A stretch of DNA of 64,000 nucleotides, from the sequence record PQ850617.1. One strand, given 5' to 3'. The position numbers were made by a program, and so were the translations under genes. Within the stretch, counting starts at the first letter, position 1. The number at the start of each line of letters is the position of its first letter. Below, piece by piece: positions 50,022 through 61,625 of the stretch. This stretch comes from Escherichia phage ManiMatter_Bas94. Below the pieces are notes generated by a model that saw only the letters and a program-made list of their open reading frames with translations, was not told the origin of the DNA and did not search any database.

Positions 50022-52052
50022 TTAACCTCTATTCAATGAACATTTAGGAGAATTACAATAAACTTGATTCATAGAACCAAGCGTACAACTTTCAGCATCG
50101 CGCCACGGAATCTGCTTAAAACACCCTGAGCAGTAGCCGAGGGTTGACCACATTGCTTTGGTGAAGTCAGTGCTTCGGTTTCCGTCGAAGCTGACAACAG
50201 TTTTGCGGAGAGCTGTTCGTGATTCAGGAAACACACCTGCTTTCTCAGCAGGTTCCTCCTTTTTTGGCTTAGTTGAGATTGCAAAAATACTGTTGCTACG
50301 TTTCTCAACATAAGCATCAACAACATCCTCCAGAGTAATGCCTGTCTGTTTCGCTGAGGAAGGTAATACAGTCATACGACCAATCATATCTTCAGTTACA
50401 CGTAAAGCAAATTCAGGACGACGGGCGTTTGTTGTATCTGTTGCTTTAATCCAGACATAACCATCTTTGATCGTAGCATTAGATACTTTCTTCTTTATAT
50501 CTACAGCGCAGACTTTACAGATATCTTCACCACGAAGACGACTGAGTTCATCATCAAACTCGTTCTCTGTTTTAACTTCACCACAGATTTCACAAACACC
50601 AATAGGAGTTTCCTCCTCTTCTTCATCTTTAGGCTTAGTCAAACCTTCCAGACATTCAGGGTGCCAGTAGCATTGATATGCGAAGACTGCTTTAGGTGCA
50701 TCCTTCCAATCAATGTGTTTATCACAACCGCCACAATCACCATGAGAATGTGCTTCCCAGAATTTACGAGTGATAGTAACGCCATTCTTGTTGACGAAAC
50801 TATCATTCATATCAAAAGGGATATCATCATCAAAGTCAGCAGTAGTTGACTCAGGCTCCTTTTTCTCCAGAGATGGGTCAACAAAACGACCTGCTGTGAT
50901 CACTAAACGAACCATAGCATTAACTTCGGAGATACAGGATACTGTCCCACGGTAAACAATTTTAGGGTCTTTCAGGGCATCCTGATAAGCCTTAATGTCT
51001 ACGTTATGAACATCACCTTCGATATACTCTTGAGATTTCTCATCGTAGATATAACCAATCATCTTACCACGAGAAGGAACAGCACCAGCAGTTGCATAAG
51101 GGACAAACTCATGTGGTGTGATCTCCACAGTCATGTCGCGGCGAATGTCAATGTTTCGATCGCTTGCGATTTTGTTTTGACTTACCACTGCGTTTCTTCG
51201 ACGAACGTCTGCCGCTGTCACTCCCGGCTTCGTGTCGTAAGGATTGCTTGTACTGCTTTTTGAGGAACTTTGATAGTTGCTTTGGCTGTAGTTGTTCGAG
51301 TAGTAATTGCCCCAACGATTGATTACCGTAAAAACCGGAAGCTCGTGGGCGACCTCTTCAACTAGAGTCATGCTGTTGTTTGACACATCAAAGATGTATT
51401 CTGTACCAACTTTACATTCAAAGTGCTCATCAATGCGATTCTTGTGAGACCTAGAACGCTTCAGAATCCACATCAACATATCTTCTTCAGAAGCACCAAA
51501 CCAATCTCTGTTACAACGTGCAAGATGGAAAGGACGCTCTTCATTACGGATGATATGAAGACGATTATCAGAAGCATCATGCCAGATTAAGGTGAAAGCA
51601 CCATCCAGCTTTTGAATAGTCTCTGCTGCACCAATAGTGTTAATAGAGTGGCAGATGTTTTCACTGTCTACCTCGAAGTTTTTACTGTCAGGTAACAGGT
51701 CTTGGTTCATCAAGGTTCCGTTATGAACCAGAGTGATGTTACCGTGTTGGAAAGGATGGGCGTTCTTGGCGTTAACTGCACCTTTCGTTGCATGACGGCT
51801 GTGACCAACAATCCATGAAGGTGCTACAGTGTAAGCTGTTTCACCAGTGGTGTGCTTCTTGTACTCATCTTGAAGGATGAATGCGAAAGAAGGAAGTGCC
51901 TCTTTATAAGTGAAGACTTCTTTAGTGCTTTTACGCTGACCAAAGATACCAGAGGAGTGCTGTCCTCGGAATACTCCAGCATAAAAGAGTTGGTTAAATA
52001 TATCTAAATCAGTGCTTGACAGATTACCGCCAGCTAATACGATGCCACAAAT
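50022..52052 (-). CDS. Class II (Ntn) glutamine amidotransferase with C-terminal Cys-rich modules; apparent AUU start
   Basis: Conserved N-terminus CGIVLAGG...RGQHSSGIF...HSRHATKG...NAHPF...VHNGTL lies upstream of the first ATG (51713); frame opens at TAG-AAA-ATT-TGT with AGGTGG 8 nt upstream; C-terminus has two CxxC...W...C...C modules. Confidence 0.7.
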   Translation of the reverse strand: MCGIVLAGGNLSSTDLDIFNQLFYAGVFRGQHSSGIFGQRKSTKEVFTYKEALPSFAFILQDEYKKHTTGETAYTVAPSWIVGHSRHATKGAVNAKNAHPFQHGNITLVHNGTLMNQDLLPDSKNFEVDSENICHSINTIGAAETIQKLDGAFTLIWHDASDNRLHIIRNEERPFHLARCNRDWFGASEEDMLMWILKRSRSHKNRIDEHFECKVGTEYIFDVSNNSMTLVEEVAHELPVFTVINRWGNYYSNNYSQSNYQSSSKSSTSNPYDTKPGVTAADVRRRNAVVSQNKIASDRNIDIRRDMTVEITPHEFVPYATAGAVPSRGKMIGYIYDEKSQEYIEGDVHNVDIKAYQDALKDPKIVYRGTVSCISEVNAMVRLVITAGRFVDPSLEKKEPESTTADFDDDIPFDMNDSFVNKNGVTITRKFWEAHSHGDCGGCDKHIDWKDAPKAVFAYQCYWHPECLEGLTKPKDEEEEETPIGVCEICGEVKTENEFDDELSRLRGEDICKVCAVDIKKKVSNATIKDGYVWIKATDTTNARRPEFALRVTEDMIGRMTVLPSSAKQTGITLEDVVDAYVEKRSNSIFAISTKPKKEEPAEKAGVFPESRTALRKTVVSFDGNRSTDFTKAMWSTLGYCSGCFKQIPWRDAESCTLGSMNQVYCNSPKCSLNRG

Positions 52053-52131
52053 TTTCTAATCCACCTGAAGGGTAAACCCTTTCATCTAATTAACCTTTAA
52101 ATTGTGCCCCTTCGTCAGAGGCACCCATTGA

Positions 52132-53235
52132 TTACAGCGCTTGCTCTAACTGATTTTCCAGATGATCTGGAATATATTCTGTGATGTTGTTATCACTGTG
52201 TCCTGACTCACGTAGCAAGTCAAAAATAGCACGGATACGCTGTTCTGATGCAGATCGTACAGTAGATAGGTCAGTTGTACGAAGCATAACCAGAATTTCT
52301 TGGTACAAGTTGTTAGCGTTCCCTCGAATATACCCAAGGAATCCATAGAAGTCTGGAATAAGACGTAAGTCAACAAGAACTTCTCCGTTGGAGTTGGTTC
52401 GACGTAAACGAATACGACCAGACTGCTCTACTTCATGAGAACGACAATACAAAACATCACGGGCCATACAATACCCTGAATGCAAATCCGATTCGTCCAG
52501 ATTGTAATCCAGAGGAAGATAAGGAAGCATTGGGGCAAATCGTACAGTATTTAAATGCTCAATAAACTGGTCATTGCTCATCTCTGCGTTATCTAAAGCC
52601 AGCTTCTTCAACATTAAGAAGCGGTTAACCAGATTGAGAAGTTGACCACGTTTCCACTTAGGCTCGCTGATACGAAACTCAATTGAGCCGTATTGGGCAA
52701 GTGGCAGAAGGTTCAGAGATGTATACTTATCCCATGAACGAACCAGACGGTTGAAGAACTCTTCACCGTCGTAGTTAAATGCGTCAGAGGCGTTCATTAC
52801 CTGTGCTTGTACCACTGCGAAAGCAGGGCAGAAGTTGCTACGGTAACGATGATAGCCTGAACACTTGAACAACATTTTTTCATAGAAGGTCCAAGCGAGG
52901 ATGGTTTTCTTGAGGATATTACTATCAGCATCCCTCATATCCATATGAACGTGAGTAGAGCAACGCCAAGTCCCCTCGGCGTGCGATTCAGCTACTGCTT
53001 CACTCAGGTTGTTGATAGCGTCTAACAACTCCTGTCCATTGTAAGGTCGTGAACATACCATTTCACAACCATTACGCAGGGAACCATCCTCTGTACAATC
53101 CCACATATCTGCTTCAATATGGTCGGAACCTTCGAGTTCTAGTTCGATACCGATACCGCACTGAAGTGCAATTGAACTATGCGCCTCAGTTAAACGACCT
53201 TCTCGGTATCCAAAAGTTTGCGCTACAGTTGTCAT
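52132..53235 (-). CDS. Amidoligase (glutamine synthetase/GCS-like COOH-NH2 ligase family)
   Basis: 367 aa; GIGIELELEG...DGSLRNGCEM pattern recalled for Amidoligase_2-type proteins. Confidence 0.55.
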   Translation of the reverse strand: MTTVAQTFGYREGRLTEAHSSIALQCGIGIELELEGSDHIEADMWDCTEDGSLRNGCEMVCSRPYNGQELLDAINNLSEAVAESHAEGTWRCSTHVHMDMRDADSNILKKTILAWTFYEKMLFKCSGYHRYRSNFCPAFAVVQAQVMNASDAFNYDGEEFFNRLVRSWDKYTSLNLLPLAQYGSIEFRISEPKWKRGQLLNLVNRFLMLKKLALDNAEMSNDQFIEHLNTVRFAPMLPYLPLDYNLDESDLHSGYCMARDVLYCRSHEVEQSGRIRLRRTNSNGEVLVDLRLIPDFYGFLGYIRGNANNLYQEILVMLRTTDLSTVRSASEQRIRAIFDLLRESGHSDNNITEYIPDHLENQLEQAL

Positions 53236-59205: not shown

Positions 59206-59398
59206 TCATGCATGAGATACCATTGTAACGCATATCAATTTCGCCAGAAGGAACCTTCTCACCTTTATGCCAGCGAGATACACAAATACCTTCCACTGCT
59301 ACTGCACACCATCCATCAGGACGGCTCTGTACGCAGCCTGTAAGGGCCACACAGACAATGAAGATACAGATTAAGGATATTACACCACTCCAACTCAT
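59117..59398 (-). CDS. Small Cys-rich lipoprotein
   Basis: Start set to ATG 59398 (GGAGGTG RBS); signal MSWSGVISLICIFIVCVALTGC with lipobox LTGC; mature part about 70 aa with 5 Cys. Confidence 0.5.
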   Translation of the reverse strand: MSWSGVISLICIFIVCVALTGCVQSRPDGWCAVAVEGICVSRWHKGEKVPSGEIDMRYNGISCMNGAAMDEETKTLSDAQWCGGSTTTTGKEW

Positions 59399-59421
59399 AA
59401 CACACCTCCAAGAGCTTCTAG

Positions 59422-59500
59422 TGAGGATGACAGGATTTGAACCTGCATACTCCAATTACTTCTTTAACGACCGCTTAGAAGGCGGGGAAGATACATCCTC
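59422..59500 (-). tRNA. tRNA-like element, possibly atypical tRNA-Arg(UCU)
   Basis: Perfect 7-bp acceptor stem GAGGATG/CATCCTC, canonical T-arm GCAGG-TTCAAAT-CCTGT, hairpin CCGC-CUUCUAA-GCGG with anticodon-loop-like UCU; no canonical D-arm found, 23-nt extra segment. Confidence 0.45.
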
Positions 59501-59541
59501 ATTAAGAATTCTCGTTAAAGCTGGTTTAAATCACATCAACC

Positions 59542-59793
59542 TCAAGCACAAGCAGGGAGAGTGATGATTTTATACTTGCCATCAAATTCTCCAAACAAAC
59601 CTAAGAATGTAGGACTATAAGTACCAGTACAAACAAACTCATCAAACAGTTCGTTATAGCTAGGCTTAATCTTCCAAGCCCATACATAACCCATCTTGTC
59701 AATTGCAATGTAACGAGTGTTTAGAGGAACAGTCATCATCACACCATCAACTTCGACCACTTTAGTGATTGGTGCAGCTTGGAAGTTTTTCAT
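59542..59793 (-). CDS. Hypothetical protein
   Basis: 83-aa ORF. Confidence 0.4.
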   Translation of the reverse strand: MKNFQAAPITKVVEVDGVMMTVPLNTRYIAIDKMGYVWAWKIKPSYNELFDEFVCTGTYSPTFLGLFGEFDGKYKIITLPACA

Positions 59794-61371: not shown

Positions 61372-61625
61372 TAGCTGGGCCGTTGTTATCAGAACTTGCT
61401 ACCTCCTCTCAGGATAAAACACCTTTCATGTATGCCTTACTCGAAGCCCTCCTTGTGGCTTTTAGTATGGATTGCTTAGCCTTATTCTTAGCTTCTTCTG
61501 TCATTCCATCAAAAACACCGAGCTTAGTTAGCTCCTTACTAGGAGGCTTATAGGAAGGGTTTAAAGCATTAGATAAATTATGACCATAGGCATGACCACG
61601 GCACAATAAAGAAGAAAGATTAAGC

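Follow-up and report, generated by a model that had tools for sequence, protein, structure and literature searches.

The glutamine amidotransferase gene of Escherichia phage ManiMatter_Bas94 is probably translated from an AUU codon through a selected initiation module that consists of a hairpin, a Shine-Dalgarno (SD) sequence, a spacer and the AUU itself (a probability of roughly 0.7, judged from comparative sequence evidence). The gene lies on the minus strand of the 64,000-nucleotide (nt) stretch of this phage that was analysed (PQ850617.1, hereafter the window). By sequence identity, the window is that of a phiEco32-like coliphage, Kuravirus: this region shares 99.8% identity with Escherichia phage LAMP and 94-96% with phiEco32 and related phages (Kuravirus, Gordonclarkvirinae). 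The start region on the minus strand has the sequence TAG ATG AAA GGG TTT ACC CTT CAG GTG GAT TAG AAA ATT TGT GGC ATC GTA TTA GCT GGC GGT. Here, a nine-codon mini-open reading frame (mini-ORF; ATG at 52085-52083, TAG at 52058-52056), which is in frame with the amidotransferase gene, is followed by an AAA triplet (52055-52053), the ATT and the codon of the catalytic Cys residue (Table 1). The coordinates of the mini-ORF, AGGTGG, TAG, ATT and TGT agree with those of a preliminary description of the window, which had proposed that the gene lacks an AUG start and is initiated at AUU. The hairpin that abuts the SD sequence, which is the feature that generalizes to other lineages, had been missed in that description.

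Table 1 Features of the amidotransferase start region and its surroundings in the window.
Feature	Position	Strand	Remarks
Glutamine amidotransferase gene (phiEco32 gp83 homologue)	50022..52052	minus	ATT start, 675 codons from Cys1, then stop
TGT, catalytic N-terminal Cys1	52047..52049	minus	C1-G2 invariant in 15 diverse homologues; aligns to Cys1 of GlmS/PurF
Invariant block, 52 nt, -49 to +2	52048..52099	minus	A/U-rich stretch, mini-ORF, hairpin, SD, spacer, AUU
Putative ATT (AUU) initiation codon	52050..52052	minus	sole near-cognate codon between in-frame TAG and Cys codon
A/U-rich spacer AUUAGAAA, 8 nt, SD to AUU	52053..52060	minus	holds in-frame UAG 52058-52056 closing the mini-ORF
Nine-codon mini-ORF ATG AAA GGG TTT ACC CTT CAG GTG GAT TAG (MKGFTLQVD, stop)	52056..52085	minus	ends 3 nt before ATT
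SD sequence AGGUGG	52061..52066	minus	8 nt upstream of AUU
Hairpin AAGGG-UUUA-CCCUU, -4.6 kcal/mol	52068..52081	minus	3′ end 16 nt before AUU, 1 nt from SD
Upstream hairpin GUGCCUCU-GACGA-AGGGGCAC	52104..52124	minus	predicted fold, after amidoligase stop; 5′ border of intergenic leader
Upstream amidoligase gene (gp84 homologue)	52132..53235	minus	stop 79 nt ahead of ATT

Between the TAG of the mini-ORF and codon 113 of the amidotransferase, there is no in-frame ATG, GTG or TTG, in agreement with the initial report of a gene without a canonical start. The first in-frame ATG had been placed at 51713; the first canonical start codon is indeed at this position, which is codon 113, but it is a TTG, and the ATG is the next codon (51710). 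A second in-frame TAG (52088-52086) is located directly 5′ of the mini-ORF ATG, and a longer N-terminal extension is therefore impossible. To place the start, the corresponding codon was compared among orthologues. In all of the more distant orthologues examined, an ATG directly precedes the Cys codon, and the ATT occupies exactly the position of this ATG. These ATG-type orthologues come from 7-11-like phages, Proteus 3H10_20, Cronobacter A24, Vibrio Vp_R1, Aeromonas LAh_9, Escherichia PJNS034, Pseudoalteromonas RIO-1 and metagenomic contigs. The leader with its ATT region, in turn, was found in ~95 GenBank phage records of the Kuravirus and Suseptimavirus group (96 record entries, with GenBank/RefSeq duplicates included), five IMG/VR contigs and seven metagenome contigs. 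The ATT is present in all of the ~18 distinct sequences that were read base by base and that cover every identity class; for the remaining leader-bearing records, the evidence is an identity of at least 95% across the ~80-nt leader. The ATT is maintained by selection: a single T-to-G change would give ATG, but this one-base restoration is absent from all Kuravirus-type sequences read.

The region downstream of the ATT was compared between Kuravirus sub-lineages. Codons 1-112 have a ratio of nonsynonymous to synonymous substitution rates (dN/dS) of 0.06-0.12 where estimable, similar to that of the next 120 codons, with synonymous sites saturated (dS of 1.2-2.8). Codons 1-112 are thus under strong purifying selection. 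This result bears on the explanation, adopted in the annotations of phages Paul and SU10, that translation starts at the internal TTG or ATG (51713/51710) and the upstream 112 codons are unexpressed, a variant of which is that the missing start codon reflects a sequencing error. Cys1, R28 and the HxRxAT motif are all encoded in this stretch, every relative in the family begins at Cys, and a product that starts at codon 113, which had been named as a possible refutation of the AUU start, would be without the active site; this start is rejected on these grounds and has a negligible likelihood. The sequencing error, which had been listed as an alternative, is likewise excluded, since the leader is found in ~100 independent genomes and contigs, with ATT in every sequence read. 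Together, the sequence comparisons indicate that AUU is the start position, that it is kept by selection and that the N-terminal domain is translated. The protein is made in infected cultures, as the product was detected by mass spectrometry in phage SU10 (PMC4281155).

The domain that begins at this Cys residue is matched by the Pfam families GATase_6 (3e-15, 56.7 bits with a cut-off of 27) and GATase_7 (30 bits with a cut-off of 25). In an alignment of 15 diverse phage homologues, C1, G2, R28, G29, H83, R85, A87, T88, N110, G111 and D128 are invariant; HxRxAT, like Cys1 and R28, falls within codons 1-112. Alignment of the phage N-domain profile with GlmS (1xff, 1jxa) and PurF (1ecb, 1ao0) pairs residue 1 with residue 1, and the Cys residue is therefore assigned as the N-terminal nucleophile Cys1, as initially suggested. 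Based on these profiles, the product is a class II (N-terminal nucleophile, Ntn) glutamine amidotransferase. The translation comprises 675 codons from Cys to the stop at 50022 (full protein, 75.9 kDa), with an N-terminal class II glutaminase domain of ~250 residues followed by a Cys-rich C-terminal region. As in GlmS, PurF and AsnB, Cys1 would be exposed by removal of the initiator Met, and the conserved Arg, Asn-Gly and Asp are shared with these enzymes. In contrast to GlmS, PurF and AsnB, the phage enzyme has the Cys-rich C-terminal region and is encoded within a cluster of amidoligase, ATP-grasp and gamma-glutamyl cyclotransferase genes. In the C-terminal two thirds (50022-51300, minus strand), three paired-CxxC clusters are observed, for example CGGCDKH...CYWHPEC, CEICGE...CKVC and CSGCFKQ...CNSPKC; a CxxC...CxxC pattern also ends distant family members, which suggests zinc-ribbon-like modules.

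The elements immediately upstream of the AUU are compact and highly conserved. The duplex of the SD sequence with the 3′ end of 16S rRNA has an energy of -7.2 kcal/mol, stronger than that of 74% of the annotated LAMP genes, and both its strength and its spacing bear out the earlier identification of this element. The 52-nt block that covers the elements from the A/U-rich stretch to the AUU does not vary among 16 distinct Kuravirus-type sequences, although synonymous sites are saturated between these lineages (dS > 1). No other invariant run within the surrounding 1 kb exceeds 11 nt, and the block is the longest exact match of the window to the ECBP2-like and 4E8-like loci. The same leader is present in Aeromonas phage BUCT695 (Grimontviridae), with 88.6% identity over 79 nt and with TAG AAA ATT TGT included. 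The enzyme domain of BUCT695 is merely 54% identical to that of the window, and its nearest relative in the tree is the ATG-type gene of Cronobacter phage A24. In BUCT695, the stem of the hairpin is retained with a UUAA loop, and the mini-ORF is kept with two changes.

To determine how widespread this arrangement is, the start regions of the enzyme family were collected. A protein search gave 57 clusters, 11 of which began downstream of the Cys residue and one of which began with "MTKIC". DNA with an intact start region was found for nine of these 12 clusters, and the codon before Cys was ATT in seven (loci L039, L041, L042/43, L044, L045/46, L128, L129 and L131), ATG in one and TTG in one. 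The three other clusters comprise one whose locus (L130) runs off the contig end, one that was not looked up (P0040) and one that is labelled partial by its source (P0006). A survey of 80 IMG/VR relatives gave ATG before Cys at 63 loci, ATT at 12 (five of them Kuravirus), ATC at one, TTG at two and GTG at one; the codon was unreadable at one locus, cut at a contig end. The family thus uses ATT or ATC in roughly 15-20% of lineages, on many separate branches: in a neighbour-joining protein tree, the ATT/ATC genes fall in at least 10 separate places among the ATG genes, and one ATT gene (L112) is the close sister of an ATG gene (L103). The IMG/VR enzymes of L103/L104/L106 (ATG) and L112 (ATT) are very close (CGIVAVISKKWH versus CGIVAVLSKKWH) and differ in the start codon and the whole upstream region, in what looks like a recent switch.

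For each locus, the best perfect hairpin with a stem of at least 4 bp, a loop of 3-8 nt and a 3′ end 12-19 nt before the start codon was scored. In the first set of loci, a hairpin of -3 kcal/mol or better was found in 11 of the 13 ATT/ATC lineages, all eleven of which reach -4 or better, versus 0 of the 63 ATG lineages (Mann-Whitney p = 1.8e-11 for the energies). Shuffled upstream sequences reached -3 kcal/mol in 6% of cases on average and in 31% at most, versus the observed 85%, and neighbouring position windows showed no enrichment. Held-out ATT loci, for which the criteria were fixed beforehand, had a hairpin at -15 in two of three cases (p = 0.0014). With L044 and the held-out loci added, the hairpin is present in 14/17 ATT/ATC versus 0/64 ATG lineages (Fisher p = 3.7e-13). 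Where present, it ends 12-16 nt ahead of the start on its 3′ side (14-16 nt in all but one) and 0-3 nt from the SD sequence. The stems are AAGGG/CCCUU, GAACCU/AGGUUC, AGACUAA/UUAGUCU, CCUAG/CUAGG, AUGC/GCAU, GUAGCC/GGCUAC, ACUUAC/GUAAGU, GUGUUG/CAACAC, GUGACAG/CUGUCAC, GAUACC/GGUAUC, CUAGG/CCUAG, GCUAGA/UCUAGC and AACGC/GCGUU. As these stems are unrelated among lineages, it is the structure of the hairpin that is conserved and not its sequence.

The remaining elements also differ between the two types of genes. The mean SD duplex energy is -8.8 kcal/mol for ATT/ATC versus -7.0 kcal/mol for ATG lineages (p = 0.003), and a perfect GGAGG is present in 7/17 versus 4/64. GGAGG is separated from the start by 8 nt in 10 of the 15 ATT-type genes that could be scored, whereas this distance ranges over 4-12 nt in ATG-type genes, and the triplet AAA precedes the start in 10/17 ATT-type versus 3/64 ATG-type genes. 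In contrast, the nine-codon leader ORF is found only in Kuravirus and in BUCT695, and the other ATT lineages lack it. When IMG/VR and the JGI metagenomes were scanned with DNA patterns for further copies of the leader, only Kuravirus contigs and one chance hit were returned, and no other gene of the window was found to use the same module in a credible form. The recurrence of such a hairpin-SD-AUU module within one family of phage enzymes appears to be new, as no description of it was found in the searchable literature.

Based on this architecture, a sequence of events can be proposed. The 30S subunit would bind the AGGUGG sequence, the AUU would be read by initiator fMet-tRNA, and deformylase and methionine aminopeptidase would then expose the catalytic Cys1. 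The AUU would be not a tolerated defect but one half of a selected initiation module, made up of a short SD-abutting hairpin, a strong GGAGG-type SD sequence, an A/U-rich spacer of ~8 nt that often ends in AAA, and the AUU. The AUU is weak, yielding 1-2% of AUG in one report (bioRxiv 10.1101/063800) and an output 6-8 fold below AUG in another (PMC3592434); this weakness would be offset or tuned by the strong SD sequence, the A-rich spacer with its fixed length of 8 nt and the hairpin next to the SD sequence. Because its 3′ end falls where the 5′ edge of a ribosome would lie when AUU occupies the P site, the hairpin is proposed to stack on or buttress the helix formed by the SD and anti-SD sequences, or to act as a backstop that blocks back-sliding. 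In either case, the ribosome would be held in register and dwell longer, and it could start on a codon that IF3 normally rejects. Hairpins that flank the initiation region are reported to stimulate expression (PMC3592434). The expected outcome would be a low or IF3-sensitive output of the glutaminase, and in Kuravirus, ribosomes that finish the mini-ORF may add to initiation. That the hairpin, GGAGG, 8-nt spacer and AUU form a dedicated and repeatedly evolved device, one that either permits an AUU start despite IF3 proofreading or tunes output to IF3 and the state of the ribosome, is a tentative extension of this proposal and, on balance, has the odds against it.

The closest precedent is E. 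coli infC, which encodes IF3. Like the window gene, infC has an AUU start, a GGAGG-type SD sequence 8 nt upstream and an upstream stop codon at -6 to -4 (GGAGG-AA-UAA-GGU-AUU, read directly, versus GGUGG-AU-UAG-AAA-AUU in the window), and in both cases a weak start would serve controlled output. Unlike in the window, there is no SD-abutting hairpin at infC, and the upstream ORF is a full gene rather than nine codons. Autoregulation by IF3 has been shown for infC, and an IF3-sensitive output may reasonably be expected for the window gene. The AUU start is also shared with E. coli pcnB, which encodes poly(A) polymerase I and for which the AUU limits the amount of enzyme (cited in bioRxiv 10.1101/063800 and PMC3592434). 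The pcnB start region (GAGGUG-UACU-AUU) differs from that of the window in its shorter spacer and in having neither a hairpin nor an adjacent upstream stop. In Enterococcus faecalis ebpA, a rare ATT start attenuates expression and the annotated ATG lies 120 bp downstream (PMC4447247); this downstream annotation parallels that of the truncated amidotransferases of Paul, SU7, 4E8, BUCT695 and SU10. ebpA is a bacterial pilus gene, unlike the phage gene, and a hairpin-SD module is not known to have been reported for it. The physical idea proposed for the window hairpin resembles that for the 5′ stem-loop of T4 gene 60. In gene 60 bypassing, this mRNA hairpin refolds at the mRNA exit of the ribosome and biases the position of the ribosome. 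The T4 element acts in elongation bypass and not in initiation, and the window is without a take-off and landing codon pair; a gene 60-style hop was rejected, as a matching landing codon is missing.

The mini-ORF raises the question of how ribosomes reach the AUU. According to the preliminary description, initiation might occur by termination-reinitiation from the leader peptide; as the main route, this would require that the mini-ORF is translated, that its ribosomes stop at the UAG and that they restart at the AUU, 3 nt on. The geometry agrees with this suggestion. The SD sequence lies within the upstream ORF, and coupling is plausible in Kuravirus because the succession of SD, 2 nt, stop, 3 nt and AUU equals that of thrS-infC, where reinitiation and de novo initiation contribute about equally, reinitiation providing about half of the expression (PMC3592434). 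In addition, the mini-ORF remains in frame in BUCT695, and an ORF also ends 4-7 nt before the AUU in L042/L076 and L112 (full upstream gene) and in L069 and L109 (short ORF). The other part of the suggestion, namely that the mini-ORF delivers the ribosomes, fared less well. The SD sequence of the mini-ORF ATG is just AAAGG in Kuravirus and is missing in BUCT695, and the hairpin would impede initiation at the mini-ORF because it spans codons 2-6. Both BUCT695 changes in the mini-ORF are non-synonymous, and its ATG pre-exists out of frame beside the old SD sequence in Cronobacter phage A24. Furthermore, no ORF ends near the start in seven of the 14 ATT/ATC lineages examined (L041, L045, L071, L075, L039, L098 and L077), with the TAG replaced by TAT in L045. 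Since only about half of the ATT/ATC lineages have an ORF that ends within 7 nt of the start, reinitiation is possible in Kuravirus and is not the general mechanism; as the main route, it is unlikely.

The extent of the invariant block is also relevant to a second explanation, in which the 52-nt leader, including the hairpin, serves chiefly to bind a regulator of the phage or the host, or acts at the DNA level, and its link to the AUU is indirect. A ribosome-binding site would not require complete invariance over 52 nt, the hairpin forms a near-perfect palindrome in the DNA (a perfect one in BUCT695), and the leader is common to two phage groups with enzymes that are only 54% identical. In the other ATT lineages, however, the sequences and loops of the hairpins are wholly different, which argues against one sequence-specific partner, and the fixed distance from hairpin to start points to the ribosome rather than to a regulator. 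No second copy of the leader was found in the window, which also led to rejection of a repeated operator, nor did the leader match any Rfam family or show similarity to E. coli genomes, so that host mimicry was dismissed as well. A regulator or DNA-level role as the principal function is accordingly considered improbable.

As the mini-ORF is in frame with the amidotransferase gene, readthrough of the UAG, which had been listed among the alternatives, would give a precursor, MKGFTLQVD-X-KI-Cys..., from which a 12-residue propeptide would have to be removed, as in Bacillus subtilis PurF. Some class II amidotransferases carry propeptides; the PurF structure in PDB entry 1ao0 begins at Cys1. At L039, moreover, the open stretch GTG ACT AAA ATT TGT could encode MTKI-Cys. 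Against readthrough, no tRNA was detected anywhere in the window by ARAGORN, and hence no suppressor tRNA, while TAG is the normal stop in eight LAMP genes; stop-codon reassignment was rejected on the same basis. The start of the mini-ORF is weak, ATG-type orthologues begin directly at Met-Cys, and the other ATT lineages have out-of-frame stops or none. Readthrough with processing is therefore regarded as highly improbable. The L039 start region (positions 1708-1725 of a contig from Logan SRR34434937) reads TAG GTG ACT AAA ATT TGT and has no abutting hairpin; its in-frame GTG three codons before the ATT, which has its own AAAGGA SD sequence, could yield either Met-Cys... or an MTKI-Cys precursor.

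Several observations weigh against initiation through a selected module as proposed here. The position window for the hairpin was set once the first examples were known, and few loci were held out. A clear hairpin is missing from three ATT lineages (L039, L112 and L131), and because infC and pcnB also lack it, AUU initiation does not generally require one. Thermodynamic prediction gives an unremarkable value (z = -1.7) when the Kuravirus leader is considered by itself, and the invariance of the whole 52 nt, which exceeds the needs of a ribosome-binding site, may reflect a further function. Lastly, the SU10 mass spectrometry data were searched with a truncated product only, which is listed at 63.8 kDa, the mass of the form that starts at codon 113. 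The N-terminal peptide expected from Cys1 is CGIVLAGGNLSSTDLDIFNQLFYAGVFR.

Other candidate elements in the leader were considered and rejected. A frameshift or fusion with the amidoligase gene or with a second short ORF (uORF1) is incompatible with the reading frames, which differ, and with the in-frame TAG that precedes the mini-ORF ATG; in addition, the uORF1 ATG is ACG in the 4E8 lineage. The consensus of the phiEco32 sigma factor promoter, tAATGTAtA (PMC8948821), is not matched in the leader, where Kuravirus has TAAAGGTTA, and the list of SU10 promoters and terminators contains nothing near the amidotransferase gene. The sole sigma-70 hit is an antisense site in non-conserved codons. This site, TTGACA-16-TACGAT (10/12 matches; 52016-52043, plus strand), is antisense to the amidotransferase start and would drive a leader-complementary RNA; since its -35 element lies in codons that vary between lineages, it is likely due to chance. 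Rfam searches for a riboswitch or other known RNA gave sub-threshold chance hits only (E = 0.1 or worse, 16 bits versus gathering scores of 44-70). Two alternative pairings were also discarded: both BUCT695 changes break the SD-sequestering helix UUUACC/GGUGGA without compensation, and a long-range closing helix, GGUUAAU/AUUAGCU, is unsupported in BUCT695.

The AUU start itself is not new, since it is already in the databases. It is annotated in the original phiEco32 record and in the LAMP and BASEL phage records, whereas downstream ATGs were chosen in the records of Paul (MN045231), SU7 (MZ342906), 4E8 (OQ689734) and BUCT695 (NC_070977). In approximately eight of the 57 protein clusters, the protein begins past the Cys codon and no contig edge evidently accounts for this; seven are ATT genes (P0014, P0019, P0027, P0035, P0036, P0044 and P0054) and the eighth, P0040, is unchecked. 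Gene callers restricted to ATG, GTG and TTG thus cut off the catalytic Cys in many entries, and such proteins look inactive but are not. Within the searchable literature, which did not include the original phiEco32 and Iyer-Aravind amidoligase papers, no link was found between the phiEco32 or other phage amidotransferases and an ATT start. In E. coli, just two AUU starts, those of infC and pcnB, count as confirmed (bioRxiv 10.1101/063800). The phage family provides a comparative data set on which features of an mRNA permit or control a start at a codon usually rejected by IF3. The glutaminase of an amidoligase and ATP-grasp cluster appears to be deliberately held at low or conditional levels. 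If the proposed device is real, these phages would link how much of a glutamine-hydrolysing enzyme is made to the state of translation in the infected cell, and the module would represent a natural, portable enhancer of non-AUG initiation that is undescribed in the searchable literature.

The amidotransferase gene is part of an early-gene cluster that also encodes the amidoligase (gp84), a COOH-NH2 ligase (gp86) and an ATP-grasp RimK-like enzyme (gp80), and the LAMP, phiEco32 and Bas92 records annotate the same amidotransferase span. At the 5′ border of the leader, the stem of the upstream hairpin shows compensatory changes in the SU7, ECBP2 and 4E8 lineages (GCGCUCU...AGGGCGC). As it has no proper U-tract, this hairpin may act in RNA processing or stability; comparable hairpins are observed ahead of the gene in the A24, 7-11-like, LAh_9 and Proteus phages. 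The second short ORF, uORF1 (MGASDEGAQFKG, then stop; 52090-52128, minus strand), begins 3 nt past the amidoligase stop and ends 4 nt before the ATG of the leader mini-ORF, with which it would make a relay of short ORFs. Because its ATG is ACG in the 4E8/L031 lineage, uORF1 is probably incidental.

Further observations concern the annotation and mosaicism of these genomes. The LAMP annotation (MG673519) also contains an ATC start (gp85, L037 34700-35320) and one CTG-start gene; the gp85 ATC lies 3 nt ahead of the ATG used by other records and is probably the choice of the annotator rather than a second non-canonical start. At 61374-61446 of MG673519, a tRNA-Arg is annotated, and the corresponding part of the window (~59321-59570) matches the flanks only, at ~86% identity; the window phage is thus distinct from LAMP and is mosaic around this region. 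Finally, window positions 44906-44979 and 43278-43344 match a KBNP1711-like contig exactly over 74 and 67 nt, which is unusually long given an identity of ~75% elsewhere; these matches fall in replication genes, near the primase-helicase/polymerase junction and in the nucleotidyltransferase gene.

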